The notes beneath the pieces were generated by a model. The model did no database searches, was not told the DNA's origin, and was given only the letters and a program-made list of their open reading frames with translations. Positions 3,191 through 35,570 of a stretch of 41,580 nt of DNA are shown here, piece after piece. Origin of the DNA: a virus. Taxonomy: Duplodnaviria; Heunggongvirae; Uroviricota; Caudoviricetes. The position numbers and the translations under genes are program-made. The number at the start of each line of letters is the position of its first letter. Positions within the stretch are counted from its first letter, which is position 1. The stretch lies in the IMG/VR virus record IMGVR_UViG_2565956608_000009; one strand, given 5' to 3'.

Positions 3191-3205
3191 TTACCCTATA
3201 GGTGA
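3191..3205. promoter_or_regulatory. Operator-like palindrome TTACC-ctata-GGTGA upstream of the acetyltransferase gene
   Basis: One mismatch to TTACC-N5-GGTAA; 37 nt upstream of ATG 3242 in the divergent holin/acetyltransferase intergenic region. Confidence 0.4.
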
Positions 3206-3241: not shown

Positions 3242-5182
3242 ATGTCTTATTTAAAATACAGAACAGATATTGATGGGCTGCGAGCTATTGCGGTTTTGCT
3301 GGTCGTGCTGTACCACGCAAACTTTCCTATTCATGGTGGTTTTATTGGTGTAGATGTTTTTTTCGTCATATCAGGATATCTCATTACCAACATCATATAT
3401 AAAGAGACTAAAAGAAATATTTTTTCATTCCTTAATTTTTACAAACGTCGAATAAAGCGATTGCTCCCAGCTTTTGCTTTTCTTCTTTTATTTTTATTTG
3501 TTTACTGCAAATTATATTTGATGCCAGATGAACTTATATCATTCTCTAAAAGTGCGGTATACGCTCTTCTTGGCATAAGCAATTTCTATTTTTTTAGTAG
3601 CACAGGTTACTTTAACTCAACCTCTTATGAACCGCTTTTACACACATGGTCGCTTTCCGTTGAAGAGCAGTTCTACATTGTATGGCCTTTCATCGTTTTC
3701 ATGCTCGTTCGGAACTCAGGGACAAAAAAAGCAATAATAATATCCTCATTACTATTTATTGTATTCCTTGGTATTTCACAGTATGGAGCGGTTAATTATA
3801 AAACAGCAGCGTATCTCCTACTGCCTTTTAGGTTCTTTGAGTTGCTCTCAGGTGCCCTACTTGCTATCTATAAAGATTCAATAACAAAACATCTGCGCCA
3901 CGGTTCTGTAATTTCACTGGTCGGCGTAATGCTGATTGTGTTGAGTTCATTATTTATAAATTCTAACACGCCATTTCCTGGGTTCACTGTTTTGCCTACA
4001 TGTTTAGGCGCTGTAATGCTTATTGCTGCAGGTGACTCATCCAAAAACTTCATTTCTAAAGTGCTGTCTTTAACTCCAGTTGTTTATGTAGGAAGAATTT
4101 CCTACTCTCTTTATTTATGGCACTGGCCTGTACTGATTCTTGCTGAATACAGGGGTATCGATCTTACGGCCTTAAATGCGACGGCGCTCATACTTATCGC
4201 ATTCATCATGGCAAGCATAAGCTATCACTTCGTTGAAAAGCCATTTAGGAAGGATTCGCTGCAATATTTCAGGACTGCATTTATAACCATCTACTTGATA
4301 CCATTAATAGTATCCGCTGCCTATGCAGCGTACATTTTAAAAAATGATGGTTTTCGCGCCAAAAGTTCAGAGTTAGTATCTGAATTAGAAGAGAGAAACG
4401 CGACAAATATTATGCGCCCACAGTGTATTGATAAATTATTTATCGGTAATGTAAATGACTGTCATCTTGGCGTTAATAAAGGCGAAGTAGATGGCGTGCT
4501 TCTTGGTGACTCCTTTGGTAATGCATATGCTTACTTTATTGATGAACTTGCGAAAGATGCTGGAATATCAATAACAGATACTACATATAGCTCAACACCT
4601 GTAATATCAGGAATTTATGTGCAGGATATCAGAAATAAGATATCTGACATAGATGCTAACCTGATAATGACATATACAAAAAACAGGCTGGAGTATGCAG
4701 CAAAACAAAAGTTCGCGATAATTTCCGTTTTTTGGGATCAGTACGGGCCACAAAATAATTACTTCCGTATCTTCGATAAAAACGGTGACGTATCGGAGAA
4801 TGCTTACCAGTTGCAATCTGAAGCAATAAAATATCTGCTGTCCAATGGCGTGAAAGTTTACATCATTGCAAGACCTTACCAGTCTATTGGCCCTGCTGCG
4901 ATAAACAAACTGCGCCAAATTAAGCTACGGCATGGGGATGTAACAACTGAAAAATATGAATACGGCGTAAAGAAAGATGATCGGATAGAATACAAGTTAA
5001 AGCAGGAGTTCCCTCAGATAACGCTAATCGATCCTAACGATGTACTTTGCCACAAAGGGGAATGTGATGCCATCGTGGATGGGAAGATCATTTTCAGAAC
5101 TGATGGTTCACACCTGAATGCTGTTGGAGCAAAAAAAATCGGGGAAGAGTATTTGAAAAACTACGCAAACCCATTTCGATAA
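3242..5182 (+). CDS. O-antigen acetyltransferase (acyltransferase-3 membrane domain plus C-terminal SGNH-like domain)
   Basis: 646 aa; N-terminus DGLRAIAVLLVVLYH...GGFIGVDVFFVISGYLIT typical of acyltransferase family 3 (OafA/Oac type); about 10 TM helices then a soluble domain; AT-rich relative to neighbours. Confidence 0.85.
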   Translation: MSYLKYRTDIDGLRAIAVLLVVLYHANFPIHGGFIGVDVFFVISGYLITNIIYKETKRNIFSFLNFYKRRIKRLLPAFAFLLLFLFVYCKLYLMPDELISFSKSAVYALLGISNFYFFSSTGYFNSTSYEPLLHTWSLSVEEQFYIVWPFIVFMLVRNSGTKKAIIISSLLFIVFLGISQYGAVNYKTAAYLLLPFRFFELLSGALLAIYKDSITKHLRHGSVISLVGVMLIVLSSLFINSNTPFPGFTVLPTCLGAVMLIAAGDSSKNFISKVLSLTPVVYVGRISYSLYLWHWPVLILAEYRGIDLTALNATALILIAFIMASISYHFVEKPFRKDSLQYFRTAFITIYLIPLIVSAAYAAYILKNDGFRAKSSELVSELEERNATNIMRPQCIDKLFIGNVNDCHLGVNKGEVDGVLLGDSFGNAYAYFIDELAKDAGISITDTTYSSTPVISGIYVQDIRNKISDIDANLIMTYTKNRLEYAAKQKFAIISVFWDQYGPQNNYFRIFDKNGDVSENAYQLQSEAIKYLLSNGVKVYIIARPYQSIGPAAINKLRQIKLRHGDVTTEKYEYGVKKDDRIEYKLKQEFPQITLIDPNDVLCHKGECDAIVDGKIIFRTDGSHLNAVGAKKIGEEYLKNYANPFR

Positions 5183-7444: not shown

Positions 7445-7548
7445 GTTAAATCTCCAGATAGTCGCAGCACCCGTTGCGCCGCATATCTGGTTATTCTATT
7501 ACCTGAAAAACCATATATGGATGGAAAGAGTGTTAATGTGAGCAGATA

Positions 7549-7563
7549 TTACCTTTCAGGTGA
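7549..7563. promoter_or_regulatory. Operator-like palindrome TTACC-tttca-GGTGA
   Basis: One mismatch to the recurring TTACC-N5-GGTAA motif; intergenic between tailspike start and the 7640 gene. Confidence 0.4.
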
Positions 7564-7600
7564 TTCGCAAAACGTGCTGGATAGCAAACAAATTATTTGC

Positions 7601-7620
7601 TACTGTATAAACATACAGTT
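7601..7620. promoter_or_regulatory. LexA (SOS) box
   Basis: TACTGTATAAACATACAGTT: CTGT-N8-ACAG with the flanking TA of the consensus TACTGT(AT)4ACAGTA; 20 nt upstream of ATG 7640. Confidence 0.65.
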
Positions 7621-7639
7621 ATTGCATGGAGAAGATAAG

Positions 7640-7897
7640 ATGCAGCAGTATCACTATCCACTGGAAGAGGGATTTACCGAAAGGATTCACACGCCGGGAG
7701 GCGTCAGGTCACTGGTGGAAGGATCGCACTTGATGAAATTACTCCGGGATCTCGATAAGGATGGATTTAATGTCGATGGCCCACTTGCCGAACTGACTGC
7801 ACTGATTAACTACGTCACCAGCTCACAGATGTCTATGCAGGATCTGCAAACACATCTCGACTATTGTGCCGAACAACTACGAAAACAAACCACATAA
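7640..7897 (+). CDS. Small antirepressor-like protein (standalone homologue of the C-terminal domain of the Bro-N antirepressor at 9045-9755)
   Basis: 85 aa from ATG 7640 (SD GGAGAAG at 7628-7634); ORF track start 7517 would span the LexA box; clear similarity to the C-terminus of the 9045 protein (LMKLLRDLDKDGFNVDGPLAELT / LMNLLNQLQDDGHDVSGAAAELT; DLQTHLDY / DIQTHAEY). Confidence 0.55.
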   Translation: MQQYHYPLEEGFTERIHTPGGVRSLVEGSHLMKLLRDLDKDGFNVDGPLAELTALINYVTSSQMSMQDLQTHLDYCAEQLRKQTT

Positions 7898-7903
7898 AGA
7901 AAA

Positions 7904-7919
7904 GGCCGCAAGAGCGGCC
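7904..7919. terminator. Bidirectional terminator hairpin between convergent genes
   Basis: GGCCGC-aaga-GCGGCC; T-rich on the minus side, moderately T-rich on the plus side. Confidence 0.55.
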
Positions 7920-8647
7920 TATCGTTTCGCTTTGTGCTCGTCCCAGCACGTTTTGCACCATGCCATTAAGCCATCCGCATTTTGATTATTAGGGTAAAAG
8001 CTGGTTCGTTTTCTGCGGACATTACAAATTGGGCACCACTTCATATGACGTGTATTCTTTGGGCCATCTAGACACCTTGCACACCACTTAGTCAATCCAT
8101 CTGGATTTTTTGACGATTTCCTGAATTTTTCATATGGAAGGTTTATTCTGCATCGCAAACACTGCTTGCGGGCACTTGAAACTTCGTTAGCTGATTCTTC
8201 TTTTGACGGCGATACAGAAGGTATTCTTGCTGGCTCTGATACTGCCTGAGGTGCTTTTTTAGGTGACTGAGACGATACGTCATCACCAGGGAATCTTCCA
8301 TGATATGCCGGACACGTTGACACTCCAGGTGGAAGCTCTGCTGTAAATGGCTTTGGCTGAATCAGTTGCCTCTCTTTTGCTAACTCCTGCTGTTTATAAT
8401 ATGTCTGGATTACCGCGCTATCATAAGCAGGAGGTACGGAAATATTAGGCGCATTATCTCCCGTTTTTTGAAACTGAGTGGAGGTGTGTTCTATCACCTG
8501 TGTACGATTAATCGTTATCTCCCCATCTTCAGTCTTTATCGTTTTGTTACGATTAACGACCGTACGATCAGAGATCTTAGTCTTGTTCTGGTGAAGGACA
8601 TAAATAATCACCGCAACCACACCAACAACTATCCAGAAAACTTCCAT
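7919..8647 (-). CDS. Membrane-anchored protein with C-terminal double zinc-ribbon (four CxxC pairs), function unknown
   Basis: 242 aa; one N-terminal TM helix (FWIVVGVVAVIIYVL) followed by basic residues; C-terminus CLRC...CARC...CPIC...CKTC; SD GAGGAA before ATG 8645-8647. Confidence 0.6.
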   Translation of the reverse strand: MEVFWIVVGVVAVIIYVLHQNKTKISDRTVVNRNKTIKTEDGEITINRTQVIEHTSTQFQKTGDNAPNISVPPAYDSAVIQTYYKQQELAKERQLIQPKPFTAELPPGVSTCPAYHGRFPGDDVSSQSPKKAPQAVSEPARIPSVSPSKEESANEVSSARKQCLRCRINLPYEKFRKSSKNPDGLTKWCARCLDGPKNTRHMKWCPICNVRRKRTSFYPNNQNADGLMAWCKTCWDEHKAKR

Positions 8648-8667
8648 TGCTTTTCCTCACAATAACA

Positions 8668-8682
8668 TTACCTTAAAGGTAA
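8668..8682. promoter_or_regulatory. Operator palindrome TTACC-ttaaa-GGTAA
   Basis: Perfect copy; 21 nt upstream of the start codon of the minus-strand gene 7919-8647. Confidence 0.55.
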
Positions 8683-8760
8683 TATCTTGCTTTCAGGTGA
8701 TCAAGCGTTAAACGCCACCAACCAAATACGGTTGATTTTTATATTTCTCCGCGTTTATCA

Positions 8761-8775
8761 TTACCTTTGCGGTAA
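8761..8775. promoter_or_regulatory. Operator palindrome TTACC-tttgc-GGTAA
   Basis: Perfect copy at the head of the long leader upstream of the Bro-N antirepressor gene. Confidence 0.55.
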
Positions 8776-8810: not shown

Positions 8811-8888
8811 GGCACTGGCAAAATCCAGTGCCGGGATTGGCGTCCCGGGTTACTAAGTGGCGCATACCACGCCAGACGTGGTTTTTTT
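8811..8888 (+). ncRNA. Structured leader / candidate small RNA or attenuator ending in an intrinsic terminator
   Basis: Three consecutive hairpins (GCACTGG/CCAGTGC 8812-8831; CCGGGA/TCCCGG 8831-8848; CCACG/CGTGG 8867-8881) followed by T7 run 8882-8888; located between operator 8761-8775 and the antirepressor SD at 9032. Confidence 0.35.
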
Positions 8889-9044
8889 ATGCGTTAAGCA
8901 CAGCTATATCCGAATTATGGTGGGCTGGGCAGGGGTCCGAAAGGACGCCGGTACCACTTAGGCCGGTACGCCAACCTTGTCCAGTTCACCACCAGTAATT
9001 GGCGTTGCGGTGGTGATTAAAATCACTAAGTGGAGATAACCACC

Positions 9045-9755
9045 ATGGCTAATGCTCAAACTTCCATCTTCAAATTTGAATCTGTTAACCCTATCCGTTC
9101 CATCATTATCGATGGCCAACCATGGTTTGTAGCCCAAGACGTTTGTAGTGCGCTGCGTATCCAAAACGTCACCCAAGCACTTGAAAAACTGGATGATGAT
9201 GAAAGGTCTATGTTCAACATAGGGCATGAACATCGTGCAATTTTTGACAGCCGAGTAAAAGAGATCAACATCATCTCCGAGTCAGGCCTCTACACACTGA
9301 TCCTCAGATGCCGCGACGCAGTGACACCAGGCACTATCCCCTACCGCTTTCGTAAATGGGTTACAGGTGAGGTTCTTCCTCAGATCCGCCGCACCGGAAG
9401 TTACATTAAAAACTCGCTCCCGCAGGAAGAACGCATAAAGATGGTTGCCGACCAGGTAGCCAACGCCACGGCGTCAGCAGTAATGCAGGCGATGAAGATA
9501 GAGAACAAAACCTACAGTGCCCCACTGAAGCCCGGCTACCGCAGTCTGATTCACTCGCCGTCTGGTGTTCTCGGCCTGACGGAGAACTCACTGCTGATGA
9601 ATCTGCTGAACCAGTTGCAGGACGACGGGCATGATGTATCGGGCGCGGCAGCGGAGCTGACCACCATGTTCTGCTACATCGTCGGTGTGAGCAAGTGCCT
9701 GCGTGATATCCAGACCCACGCGGAGTATATCAACGACAAAGCAGGGTTCTTCTGA
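9045..9755 (+). CDS. Antirepressor, Bro-N (KilA-N-type) N-terminal domain with Ant-type C-terminal domain
   Basis: Start ATG 9045 with SD GGAGA (track start is GTG 9030); N-terminal motif FVAQDVCSALRIQNVTQALEKLDDDE...YTLILR and VLPQIRRTGSY typical of Bro-N antirepressors. Confidence 0.8.
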   Translation: MANAQTSIFKFESVNPIRSIIIDGQPWFVAQDVCSALRIQNVTQALEKLDDDERSMFNIGHEHRAIFDSRVKEINIISESGLYTLILRCRDAVTPGTIPYRFRKWVTGEVLPQIRRTGSYIKNSLPQEERIKMVADQVANATASAVMQAMKIENKTYSAPLKPGYRSLIHSPSGVLGLTENSLLMNLLNQLQDDGHDVSGAAAELTTMFCYIVGVSKCLRDIQTHAEYINDKAGFF

Positions 9756-27033: not shown

Positions 27034-27070
27034 TTGACATTTAACGCACGAATTATTACCTTTCAGGTAA
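27034..27070 (+). promoter_or_regulatory. Candidate promoter (-35 TTGACA) with operator palindrome TTACC-tttca-GGTAA (27056-27070)
   Basis: Perfect -35 hexamer 27034-27039; perfect operator copy overlapping the expected -10/+1 region; directed toward the tRNA. Confidence 0.5.
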
Positions 27071-27392
27071 GCAGAGAGTGCATTCCTGTTATTAACCTGA
27101 CTGGCTTGTCGTTAAATTGAACAGGTGGAGTGAGATTTTATTTTGAGCAGTACGGCGTATGGCACATGCGCCGATAGCGGTCTGGATACGTTTAATGGGC
27201 ACCCTCCCTTGCTCGGGCAAACGAACCAGGTAGCCGGAATGTGCAAGTCGAGCGGTTTTATTCCGCGCACGGGGATTCACCATCCCGGCGATTCGGTGTG
27301 ACGCCTCGGAAGAGACGAGGGTGCAACGATGAGAGCATTTATGGAGCCGCGACAAAGTGTGGCGCCTTAACAGGCTAAGTGCTCTCAGCGTT

Positions 27393-27469
27393 GTGGCATT
27401 AGCTCAGTTGGACAGAGCAACCGCCTTCTAAGCGGTCGGTCGCAGGTTCGAATCCTGCATGCCACGCCA
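27393..27469 (+). tRNA. tRNA-Arg (anticodon UCU), phage-encoded
   Basis: 77 nt with CCA; 7-bp acceptor stem GTGGCAT/ATGCCAC, D-arm GCTC/GAGC, anticodon stem ACCGC/GCGGT with loop CTTCTAA, T-arm GCAGG-TTCGAAT-CCTGC; internal to the prophage, so not the integration site. Confidence 0.85.
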
Positions 27470-27672
27470 GAATCACGCCTAAGGACCGTGATGCCAGAAG
27501 TTCCAGGGGCTTGGCGGTGATGGTTTCCCTTGAAGGACTATCACCGCCCTTTTTACAGCAGGACGCCATTGCGATGGCTTCATGCTGTAAACCAGTACAG
27601 CCACGGAAGGCATAACTCATTGCTTCCAGTTCGCCCGGTTCGCAGGGCATTTTTTTAAGGTGAGATTAGACT

Positions 27673-28044
27673 ATGAGTGACAAAGACATTGAATCTGAAA
27701 TTCAGGCTAAAGGTTTAGCCGCGCCGCGCGTTACGCCAGACCATATCGAGAGTATTATTGCTCAGGAGGCATATTTCACAGCAGAAGATGGTGTCTTTGG
27801 CGTAGCCATAAAAGCGAAACATACTGGCGGAGAGGTAAACTACCAGCCGCACGAATCACTTTCTCTGCTGACGTTCTGCGTTCTGGTGCTGCGCAATGGC
27901 TTCACCGTCACCGGAGAGAGCGCCTGTGCAAGCCCGGAAAACTTTGATGCGGAAATTGGTCGGAAGATTGCCCGGCAGAATGCTGTAAACAAAATCTGGA
28001 TGCTTGAAGGTTACTTGCTGAAGCAGAAGTTAAGCGAGCAATAA
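27673..28044 (+). CDS. Gp49-like phage protein of unknown function
   Basis: 123 aa; SD AAGGTGAG; pattern TFCVLVLRNGFTVTGESACASPENFD recalls the N4 gp49 / Sf6 gp66 family; oriented opposite to the flanking late genes. Confidence 0.5.
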   Translation: MSDKDIESEIQAKGLAAPRVTPDHIESIIAQEAYFTAEDGVFGVAIKAKHTGGEVNYQPHESLSLLTFCVLVLRNGFTVTGESACASPENFDAEIGRKIARQNAVNKIWMLEGYLLKQKLSEQ

Positions 28045-34466: not shown

Positions 34467-34697
34467 TCATGAGTAGAAGAAGTATGCCAGTTCTGCTTTT
34501 GAGCGCAGCCATTGTCTTGTTTTACAGGCTTTAAAAAGCCCATTCATCAATACTTTACCTGGCATTTTTCGCTTACCTGTTAAGTGAGTCTGGATATAGT
34601 GACTCGTCGTTCCGGCTTCCTGTGCGAAGGCTTCACGCTCATCCGGAGTAAGTGCAAGCCAGTGCTTTTTGAAATCGAAATGTCCGTTATCGCTCAT
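34467..34697 (-). CDS. Cro-like small HTH regulator
   Basis: 76 aa; HTH-like WLALTPDEREAFAQEAGTTSHYIQTHLTGKRK; divergent from the repressor gene with operators between them. Confidence 0.55.
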   Translation of the reverse strand: MSDNGHFDFKKHWLALTPDEREAFAQEAGTTSHYIQTHLTGKRKMPGKVLMNGLFKACKTRQWLRSKAELAYFFYS

Positions 34698-34764
34698 AGC
34701 TATTGCCTGATATTTATTTCAGATAATAAATATTCACCCATAAGGTAACAAAAATCAAGGATAG

Positions 34765-34796
34765 TTACCTATGAGGTGCATTTACCTGTTGGGTAA
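34765..34796. promoter_or_regulatory. Tandem operators in the divergent switch region (34765-34779 TTACC-tatga-GGTGC; 34782-34796 TTACC-tgttg-GGTAA)
   Basis: Two adjacent copies separated by 2 bp between the Cro-like and repressor genes; an AT-rich inverted repeat ATATTTATT/AATAAATAT lies at 34710-34733. Confidence 0.55.
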
Positions 34797-34851: not shown

Positions 34852-35436
34852 ATGAAAAGTATCCAGGACGTCCGCAGGCAAAATCTCAACGACTTGATCG
34901 ACCGTGAATTCAATGGTGTTCAGACGCGGATGGCAGAAAAACTTGGAACTCAGGCAAATCTGGTAAACCGCTGGGCTCTTGGCAAGAAGGTTATCGGCGA
35001 CCAGGTTGCGCGAAAAATTGAAGCTGCCGCCAATAAACCCCGTAACTGGCTTGATATCGATCGCTCGCTTTCTCAGGAAGGTTTTCAGCCTGTCGGCCCA
35101 AGCGACATTGGTCAGCTGGCGGCTCACAACCTGGAACGCTGGATGAGCGAAAGCCGCGACCTTTCAACACAGGGAAAACTTCACCGCGCATCCGGCGTCG
35201 CCCAGGTGACAATCAGCCGCCTGTTAAACAATGAGGTCAGCGTTTCCATTTCCACCCTGGAGAATGTTGCATCTGCATTCGGGCGTCACGGATATGAACT
35301 ACTGATTCATCCGCATGACCCTGCAACTATCAACTATGACCGCTCGCGCTACGCATTGTTACCTGAAACAGAGAAGGCAAAGATCGAAAGTTACATTGAA
35401 TTTGTCATCAACCAGAACGAAAAAAACAAACAATAA
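34852..35436 (+). CDS. Prophage repressor candidate: tandem helix-turn-helix protein without a peptidase domain
   Basis: 194 aa; two XRE-like HTH segments (QTRMAEKLGTQANLVNRWALGKK and LHRASGVAQVTISRLLNNEVSVSISTLENVASAFG); no S24 Ala-Gly/Ser-Lys motif; followed by a strong terminator. Confidence 0.6.
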   Translation: MKSIQDVRRQNLNDLIDREFNGVQTRMAEKLGTQANLVNRWALGKKVIGDQVARKIEAAANKPRNWLDIDRSLSQEGFQPVGPSDIGQLAAHNLERWMSESRDLSTQGKLHRASGVAQVTISRLLNNEVSVSISTLENVASAFGRHGYELLIHPHDPATINYDRSRYALLPETEKAKIESYIEFVINQNEKNKQ

Positions 35437-35493: not shown

Positions 35494-35570
35494 TTACCTA
35501 ACGGGTAATTTTTTTAACTCATATCTATTGACATCAAACCAGATACGCATAATTATTACCTCAACGGTAA
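35494..35570 (+). promoter_or_regulatory. Promoter region of the plus-strand early operon: operators 35494-35508 and 35556-35570 flanking -35 TTGACA (35527-35532)
   Basis: Both copies perfect (TTACC-taacg-GGTAA, TTACC-tcaac-GGTAA); the second overlaps the expected -10/+1 region. Confidence 0.55.

Follow-up and report, generated by a model that had tools for sequence, protein, structure and literature searches.

Many anti-phage systems, rexAB and sieA among them, come from genes that adjoin prophage repressors. In lambda, rexAB occupies the slot immediately downstream of the CI repressor gene, on the same strand, and encodes a DNA binder, RexA, together with its membrane partner RexB, a protein of four transmembrane (TM) helices. 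In lactococcal prophages, small proteins of the Sie2009 type, whose genes adjoin the repressor gene, have an N-terminal membrane anchor and block DNA injection; the bulk of these proteins is thought to lie outside the cell. SieA of P22, encoded by mnt/ant near the tailspike gene, is an inner-membrane protein of three to four TM helices expressed from the prophage through its own promoter (PMC10883804), and p16.7 of phi29, a lytic Bacillus phage, is an early protein in which an N-terminal membrane anchor is joined to a cytoplasmic DNA-binding part (PMC4974454). Here we analyse a minus-strand gene at positions 7919-8647 of the IMG/VR record IMGVR_UViG_2565956608_000009, a stretch of 41,580 nucleotides (nt) that we call the window. 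The window is an epsilon15/phiV10-like (Uetakevirus) prophage, and the region is 100% identical to the chromosome of E. coli SCU-116. The gene product combines one N-terminal TM helix with a C-terminal pair of Cys4 zinc modules, and we refer to it as the zinc-finger protein.

The gene is genuine, accessory and under purifying selection. Its 242-codon frame is intact in all 54 of the related IMG/VR loci, and the ratio of nonsynonymous to synonymous polymorphism (pN/pS) over these loci is 0.26 overall, with 0.06 in the zinc domain, 0.29 in the TM and juxtamembrane segments and 0.78 in the linker between them; together these observations show that it is no chance open reading frame (ORF). A pseudogene reading, which the annotation of the corresponding TL-2011b region as a mere misc_feature might invite, is ruled out because the TL-2011b copy is intact, as are all 54 loci. 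Complete E. coli genomes contain the gene in intact form in 129 of 5,426 cases (2.4%), every copy annotated as 'hypothetical protein', whereas the conserved flanking gene is found in 529 of them, so that about a quarter of such prophages carry the cassette to which the gene belongs. The protein matches PHROG 6762 over its full length (E=2.4e-144, residues 1-242 on profile positions 1-242), a family labelled 'unknown function', membership of which carries no functional information. None of the sources we checked gives a functional name to any family member, PADLOC and NCBIfam return nothing meaningful for the zinc-finger protein, and we found no description of a TM-anchored double-zinc-finger family in the literature. 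The original prediction, made from the DNA letters alone, had recognised no characterised family either, and the searches bear it out: all sources say 'hypothetical'.

The membrane anchor is easily located. Residues 3-21 form the sole hydrophobic segment of the protein (Kyte-Doolittle hydropathy up to 2.3), and the AlphaFold2 (AF2) model has a helix at the same residues, with a predicted local distance difference test score (pLDDT) of about 90. The N-tail in front of it consists of two residues with a net charge of -1, the 15 residues behind it carry +3, and the zinc domain has a net charge of +15 and an isoelectric point of 10. The same bias runs through the family: among 36 members the N-tail has 0-3 residues and a charge of zero or below, mean charges are +1.9 in the post-TM segment and +13 over the last 80 residues, and 31 of the 36 show a bias of the N-out/C-in type. 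Because the positive-inside rule applied to this charge distribution gives an N-out/C-in orientation, we infer that the helix is an anchor of that kind and that the eight zinc-ligand cysteines face the reducing cytoplasm. We also considered a Sec signal peptide, and hence a periplasmic protein, and ruled it out: the n-region is only 'ME' (net -1), the h-region spans 17-19 residues, the positive charges follow the h-region, and the protein has eight zinc-ligand cysteines.

Comparison of 30 Enterobacterales prophage homologues divides the protein into three parts of very different conservation. The N-terminus is invariant, comprising M-E, the TM helix, N-Q-N-K/R-T and then a beta-rich stretch to about residue 60; the linker is hypervariable; and the C-terminal 85 residues are highly conserved. 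Specifically, the juxtamembrane segment has an N-x-N-K/R-T motif followed by a predicted beta-hairpin, for which AF2 gives strands at 29-39 and 42-52 with low confidence, and its G42 is nearly invariant. The linker varies in both length and sequence among homologues and contains a ninth cysteine, C112, which is unconserved. The C-terminal domain is modelled with pLDDT >90 in the full-length model and 89 in a model of the domain by itself. A Foldseek search of the PDB with the full-length model gave only noise (best E=1.7) because that model is mostly disordered linker.

The conserved C-terminal domain contains four CxxC pairs, CLRC (163-166), CARC (189-192), CPIC (205-208) and CKTC (231-234), arranged as two fingers. 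The second finger aligns internally to the first with a score of 71, so the halves are homologous, and K161, the eight cysteines, G184, W188, D225 and W230 are invariant in the family. Eight invariant cysteines in two homologous halves are also what is seen in a tandem zinc finger of the Stc1 type. Each finger is predicted to consist of beta-strands and a short helix that starts at the second CxxC. The original prediction had described the 242-residue ORF with its four CxxC pairs, one N-terminal TM helix and a C-terminal double Cys4 domain, and in all of this it agrees with hydropathy, the AF2 model and family conservation. It had also called the two zinc modules ribbons; the two modules are there, but the predicted secondary structure and the fold matches indicate knuckle-plus-helix (treble-clef/beta-beta-alpha-like) Cys4 fingers and not classical two-knuckle ribbons.

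Structure comparison places these fingers among those that accompany nucleases. The N-terminal zinc site of PacI superposes on finger 1 with a root-mean-square deviation of 1.1 A over 34 residues, and BFVD yields 40 fold matches at E <= 1e-3, mostly to phage and giant-virus HNH, endonuclease VII and beta-beta-alpha-Me proteins, with 'Zn-finger' and 'Stc1 domain' proteins also among them. Thus the Cys4-stabilised scaffold does resemble HNH/endonuclease VII (beta-beta-alpha-Me) nucleases in fold, and these enzymes provide the best fold and profile matches, as would be expected of a membrane-anchored HNH/EndoVII-type nuclease that cuts incoming DNA. However, the matches cover the structural Cys4 zinc sites only: the PHROG profiles 'endonuclease VII', 'HNH' and 'Lar-like' are matched through their zinc parts, which lie in the N-terminal accessory parts of those families, and a Pfam scan of the protein finds no HNH or Endonuclease_7 match. 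Neither module has a His or Asn conserved across the family, so the catalytic His and the metal-binding Asn/His of a beta-beta-alpha enzyme are both missing. Since conserved catalytic residues are lacking throughout the family, we reject the nuclease reading, which is hardly credible on this evidence.

Sequence profiles lead to the same finger type. The window protein scores 21.1 bits against the Pfam Stc1 domain (PF12898), below the gathering threshold of 24.8, and multi-repeat relatives together with one TM-anchored relative pass that threshold at 25-61 bits; profile searches against PDB sequences give marginal matches only (PacI E=0.08). A profile of the zinc domain retrieves 2,959 representative clusters of two kinds. 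One comprises soluble proteins, in which the repeats number up to about 14; the other comprises proteins of about 200 residues with exactly the TM-linker-double-finger layout. The zinc module is therefore a known and widespread viral finger type, Stc1-like and HNH/EndoVII-associated, and only the overall architecture and the family are uncharacterised. Precomputed matches described as 'faint' to Pfam PF27269 (YonG_N), a recent family named after a Bacillus SPbeta prophage protein, are on record for four distant members (P0153, P0181, P0183 and P0184) and none for the window protein.

The charge of the domain and the company that it keeps suggest that it binds nucleic acid. Elsewhere the module is found fused to Bro-N+T5orf172, to KilA-N, to DnaJ, to an SF1 helicase and to HEAT repeats. 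Tandem fingers of the LIM, Stc1 or RING type could instead form a protein-binding adaptor or host-takeover factor, which would tie up at the membrane a protein of the host or of a phage, such as one of division, transport, proteolysis or defence. Both the extreme, conserved positive charge and the recurrence of fusions, to nucleases, a helicase, Bro-N and KilA-N, argue for nucleic acid rather than a protein partner, and co-transcription with cI, as in some relatives, would not be expected of a toxic takeover factor; we regard this alternative as decidedly improbable.

Of all the results, the genomic niche of the family tells us most. Homologues come in dozens of 50%-identity clusters from Enterobacterales, Acinetobacter, Pasteurellaceae and marine Gammaproteobacteria, the hosts including Edwardsiella, Haemophilus, Oceanobacter, Marinobacterium, Pseudoalteromonas and Neptunomonas. 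At 42-63% identity, in epsilon15-like prophages of Serratia, Superficieibacter, Enterobacter and others, the invariable place of the gene is between the tailspike and ejection-protein genes; as a rule it closes the antirepressor operon region and carries a terminator-promoter-operator unit of its own. At 25-39% identity, in phages further removed, it adjoins the repressor gene. Specifically, it follows on the same strand directly downstream of a repressor of the HTH_3+Peptidase_S24 (CI/LexA) type, with a gap of 15-18 nt in loci L078-L085, L096, L098 and L105, 39 nt in L104 and 54 nt in L091, or it lies tail-to-tail with the repressor gene at a gap of 0-38 nt (L087, L093 and L097). One of these two arrangements, 15-54 nt downstream or tail-to-tail, is seen in at least eight lineages. 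L105 has P22_Cro, lambda-P, NinB and RusA on the other side, which makes it a textbook lambdoid immunity region. Other loci place the gene beside Arc-like (L090), Rha-like (L089/L075) or Bro-N (L095) genes. Across the family, the linkage to cI and ant modules is tight. The original prediction had judged the position of the window gene typical of exclusion or lysogenic-conversion genes, and the distant homologues, directly downstream of cI-type repressors or within antirepressor modules, support it independently.

In two of the loci (L086 and L092) a TM-less zinc-finger gene is separated from the repressor gene by a gene for a homologous protein of about 100 residues with three TM helices, all on the same strand, which suggests a two-component version of the system. 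Genes for such 3-TM proteins adjoin the zinc-finger gene in three loci of the Acinetobacter type (L086 5685-5993, L092 1046-1342 and L076 7567-7878); the three proteins are 57-85% identical to one another and have no PHROG match.

Because the genes with known roles in such positions are mostly exclusion or abortive-infection functions, we tentatively favour the reading that the zinc-finger protein, tethered to the membrane and binding nucleic acid, acts at the inner membrane face in exclusion or abortive infection, a reading that is possible and falls short of probable. In this proposal the gene would form, with a promoter bearing a repressor operator and with a terminator, a self-contained accessory cassette of a phiV10/epsilon15-like E. 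coli prophage, its transcription in the window phage being set, as predicted, by the prophage repressor through an operator that overlaps the -10. The product would be a bitopic inner-membrane protein, with two residues in the periplasm, one TM helix as the anchor, and, on the cytoplasmic side, the conserved juxtamembrane beta-hairpin, a flexible linker of about 95 residues and the basic (+15) tandem Cys4 domain. The tethered domain might bind nucleic acid non-specifically at the inner membrane face and act either on incoming or replicating foreign phage DNA or on the ejection complex, giving superinfection exclusion or abortive infection, and the protein could then be seen as a single-chain counterpart of lambda RexA and RexB. 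A bolder version, which we think somewhat unlikely, would make it the founding example of a new and widespread anti-phage family of Gammaproteobacteria prophages, a single-chain, Rex-like, membrane-tethered DNA sensor or blocker encoded beside cI or ant, whose basic tandem zinc finger captures the DNA of an incoming phage where the injection channel opens into the cytoplasm or triggers abortive infection at the level of the membrane, and of which the soluble zinc-finger protein with its small 3-TM partner is the two-gene variant.

The cassette is present in the window and in TL-2011b and absent from phiV10 and from most isolated relatives, with two-piece matches in 13 phage records. The gene runs antisense between two antirepressor-type genes, as the original prediction had it. 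The gene to its right, at 9030-9755 (+), encodes a Bro-N antirepressor (Pfam Bro-N E=1e-19); to its left a small ORF ends at 7897 (+), whose product shows homology to Ant proteins in their C-terminal part (phrog_450/15539/1760). This left neighbour reproduces, as a separate protein, the C-terminal domain of the antirepressor next to it, and phrog_450 and phrog_15539 are matched by both. The left neighbour has an operator of its own at 7549; its length is 126 residues when read from the ATG at 7517 (7517-7897, mechanical ORF) and 85 residues (7640-7897) in RefSeq and phiV10. Directly upstream of the Bro-N gene, and on its strand, Rfam places isrK (8812-8888, 67.7 bits) and the C4 antisense RNA (8913-8996, 66 bits), both above the gathering score. 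With these two elements immediately to its right, the cassette stands, in divergent orientation, as an insertion where a P1-immI-like antirepressor module begins. The combination of isrK, C4 and Bro-N is itself a P1-immI/Gifsy-IsrK-like RNA-controlled antirepressor module in a Uetakevirus prophage. At the other edge of the gene, the terminator hairpin that had been noted at the stop is present at 7920-7903 (-), where it overlaps the stop codon, with 7 pairs (6 GC), a 4-nt loop and then a T-run.

The original prediction also gave the gene an operator of its own at 8668-8682. The palindrome is real, with its core, TTACCTTAAAGGTAA, at these positions and 20 nt between it and the ATG, but it is not private: TTACC-N5-GGTAA, with one mismatch allowed, occurs at 16 sites in the window (2949, 3191, 7549, 8668, 8761, 9828, 27056, 30203, 30221, 32413, 32475, 34397, 34734, 34782, 35494 and 35556), against 0.62 expected by chance. 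Operators at 34734, at about 34765 (degenerate) and at 34782 lie between a cro-like gene (34467-34697, minus) and the repressor gene, and those at 35494 and 35556 lie just downstream of the latter; this clustering around the HTH_3 gene is the layout of the operators of a main repressor. As a set, the 16 palindromes are dispersed ahead of many transcription units beyond the cI/cro region, in the manner of a P1-like dispersed operator regulon, and at several of them the half-site TACCTT serves as the -10 hexamer.

The zinc-finger gene belongs to this group, the -10 of its candidate promoter, TACCTT, being the left half of the operator. The same promoter layout is found in L064/L067 (TTGACC-17-TACCTT), in a Serratia prophage (L003, TTGAAC-17-TACCTT) and at window site 27056 (TTGACA-17-TACCTT). 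A generic promoter scanner reports no minus-strand promoter upstream of the gene, and the promoter rests on manual reading and on conservation in four lineages. From an operator over the -10 one would expect control by the repressor instead of constitutive expression from the prophage, and for the zinc-finger gene such control appears well supported. That the operator also means silence in the lysogen is uncertain, the same operator type being found at phiV10 oac and at the AT3-SGNH acyltransferase gene of the window. According to the phiV10 record, oac acetylates the O-antigen and functions in superinfection immunity, and the operator lies just upstream of its -10. At both acyltransferase genes, which are of the lysogenic-conversion type (3191-3205 before the AT3+SGNH gene at 3242-5182 in the window; 328-342 before oac at 382-1398 in phiV10, L002) the operator has an imperfect GGTGA half-site and stands immediately upstream of a good -10 (TATCAT and TATTAT, respectively).

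Table 1. Coordinates of the zinc-finger cassette, its signals and the presumed repressor in the window.
Feature	Position	Strand	Basis
Cassette of about 850 bp (terminator, gene, promoter/operator)	~7903..8755	.	alignment A1 with phiV10, TL-2011b
Intrinsic-terminator-like hairpin over the stop codon	7903..7920	-	hairpin prediction
Coding sequence, 242 aa, ATG start	7919..8647	-	RefSeq WP_001617182.1 'hypothetical protein'; PHROG 6762
Cys4 zinc finger 2 (C205, C208, C231, C234)	7946..8035	-	repeat of finger 1; invariant Cys, D225, W230
Cys4 zinc finger 1 (C163, C166, C189, C192)	8072..8161	-	invariant Cys, G184, W188; pLDDT >90
Hypervariable disordered Pro/Ser/Gln-rich linker, residues 61-155	8183..8467	-	alignments A2/A4; pLDDT ~40-55; pN/pS 0.78
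Conserved juxtamembrane segment, residues 22-60	8468..8584	-	alignments A2, A4; AF2
TM helix, residues 3-21; N-tail only 'ME'; predicted N-out/C-in	8585..8641	-	hydropathy, AF2, charge bias
Shine-Dalgarno GAGGA, 6 nt before the ATG	8654..8658	-	sequence reading
Perfect 17-bp palindrome ATTACCTTAAAGGTAAT	8667..8683	.	TTACC-N5-GGTAA operator set
Candidate sigma-70 promoter: -35 TTGATC (8704-8699), 17-nt spacer, -10 TACCTT (8681-8676)	8676..8704	-	manual reading
Operator at the divergent antirepressor-operon promoter (TTGATT-18-TATCAT, 8732-8761)	8761..8775	.	operator scan, promoter scan
Prophage repressor gene (HTH_3)	34852..35436	+	flanking operator clusters; presumed binder of the operator upstream of the zinc-finger gene

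This regulation brings in an alternative in which the protein is an accessory of the lysis-lysogeny switch, its tethered zinc domain binding DNA, the repressor or the antirepressor so as to bias or stabilise the transition, as lambda RexA does independently of exclusion. The gene consistently adjoins cI or ant genes over 27-100% identity; in the window phage it is divergent from the isrK/C4/Bro-N ant operon and apparently co-regulated with it through paired operators; and a switch accessory would suit both co-transcription with cI and repressor-controlled early expression. For RexA itself, a bias of the switch toward lytic growth has been reported (PMC11077077). The window repressor has 194 residues, with HTH_3 in its C-terminal half and without a Peptidase_S24 domain, for which reason RecA-mediated self-cleavage is unlikely and induction probably proceeds through the antirepressor; in the sister phage ZX5 the repressor has been shown to block lytic genes, and repressor and Bro-N antirepressor control lytic gene expression (PMC9782041). 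However, about three quarters of the E. coli prophages of the window type are without the gene, and lysogenisation and induction are normal in isolated phages that lack it (PMC9782041), so that it is no core part of the switch. An interaction with CI or Ant has no support, and membrane anchoring has no obvious role in a switch. We consider this explanation, the main rival of the exclusion reading, unlikely.

Early, repressor-released expression, which an operator over the -10 predicts, is equally what would be expected of an organiser like phi29 p16.7, an early membrane protein that brings the DNA of its own phage, once injected or during replication, to the membrane in aid of replication or packaging. 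The design is the same, an N-terminal membrane anchor with a cytoplasmic DNA-binding part, and some of the distant loci lie beside recombination and replication genes. The gene is nevertheless co-transcribed with cI in at least six lineages, where a replication organiser would be pointless, it is absent from most close relatives, and it shows no sequence or fold relation to p16.7, all of which makes such a role very unlikely.

Three further observations concern palindromic sites. The operator at 8761-8775 is the exact reverse complement of phiV10 (L002) 4523-4537 (TTACCTTTGCGGTAA versus TTACCGCAAAGGTAA), and the right-hand flanks are collinear, an arrangement suggesting that acquisition of the cassette involved recombination or inversion inside the palindromic arms. 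The operator-bearing promoter at 27056 precedes a tRNA gene (27393-27466) and a gene of the N4-gp49/Sf6-gp66 family (27673-28044), the whole (27056-28044) forming a small plus-strand cassette between the portal and large terminase genes, both of which are on the minus strand. Finally, a second perfect palindrome, GTGACATGTCAC, is found about 60-75 nt upstream of the zinc-finger gene start in three epsilon15-like prophages (L061, L064 and L067), where it sits between the ant-operon terminator and the zinc-finger promoter; it is absent from the window.

The finger type, and the niche as a home of exclusion genes, are already known, and it is the architecture and the family that are uncharacterised. 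The family is common, strongly constrained and wholly unannotated. If the zinc-finger protein does act in phage exclusion, as we tentatively propose, its mechanism would be cytoplasm-facing and DNA-directed, different from those of the Sie proteins known so far, and this would matter for the host range of phage therapy in E. coli, Serratia and Acinetobacter; if the protein tunes the switch instead, it would link membrane location to lysis-lysogeny control.

Set against the described systems, the closest relation in the fingers themselves is to the Stc1-like/HNH-associated Cys4 type (PF12898, the N-terminal zinc sites of PacI and Hpy99I, and the accessory fingers of phage EndoVII/HNH proteins), with which the protein shares CxxC-x(~22)-CxxC, the conserved F, DG and W, the tandem arrangement and the predicted knuckle-plus-helix fold. 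It differs from them in its sub-threshold PF12898 score and in having no nuclease core, and its fusion to a membrane anchor is an architecture undescribed for such fingers. From p16.7 it differs in DNA-binding fold and in the kind of phage, and the replication role of p16.7 does not fit the co-transcription with cI seen in the family. The Sie2009-type proteins belong to Gram-positive hosts and have no zinc fingers. SieA is likewise an accessory inner-membrane protein with its own promoter, from the immI/tailspike/ejection-protein region of a podovirus prophage. It has no zinc domain and no homology to the zinc-finger protein, which has a single TM segment and nowhere contains the SieA motif FxRYPxEAxxFNK (PMC10883804), and SieA's expression from the prophage contrasts with the repressor operator over the -10 here. 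RexA and RexB show no sequence or fold relation to the protein, which matches no PADLOC model and has one TM helix against the four of RexB, and the window gene lies in an antirepressor region with its own promoter, probably under repressor control, rather than in a cI operon. Distant members of the family nevertheless occupy the very slot of rexAB, with the short same-strand gaps given above, and what lambda divides between two proteins is here joined in one chain, a probable nucleic-acid-binding domain with its membrane anchor, while in the Acinetobacter variants a version without a TM helix goes together with a separate 3-TM protein.
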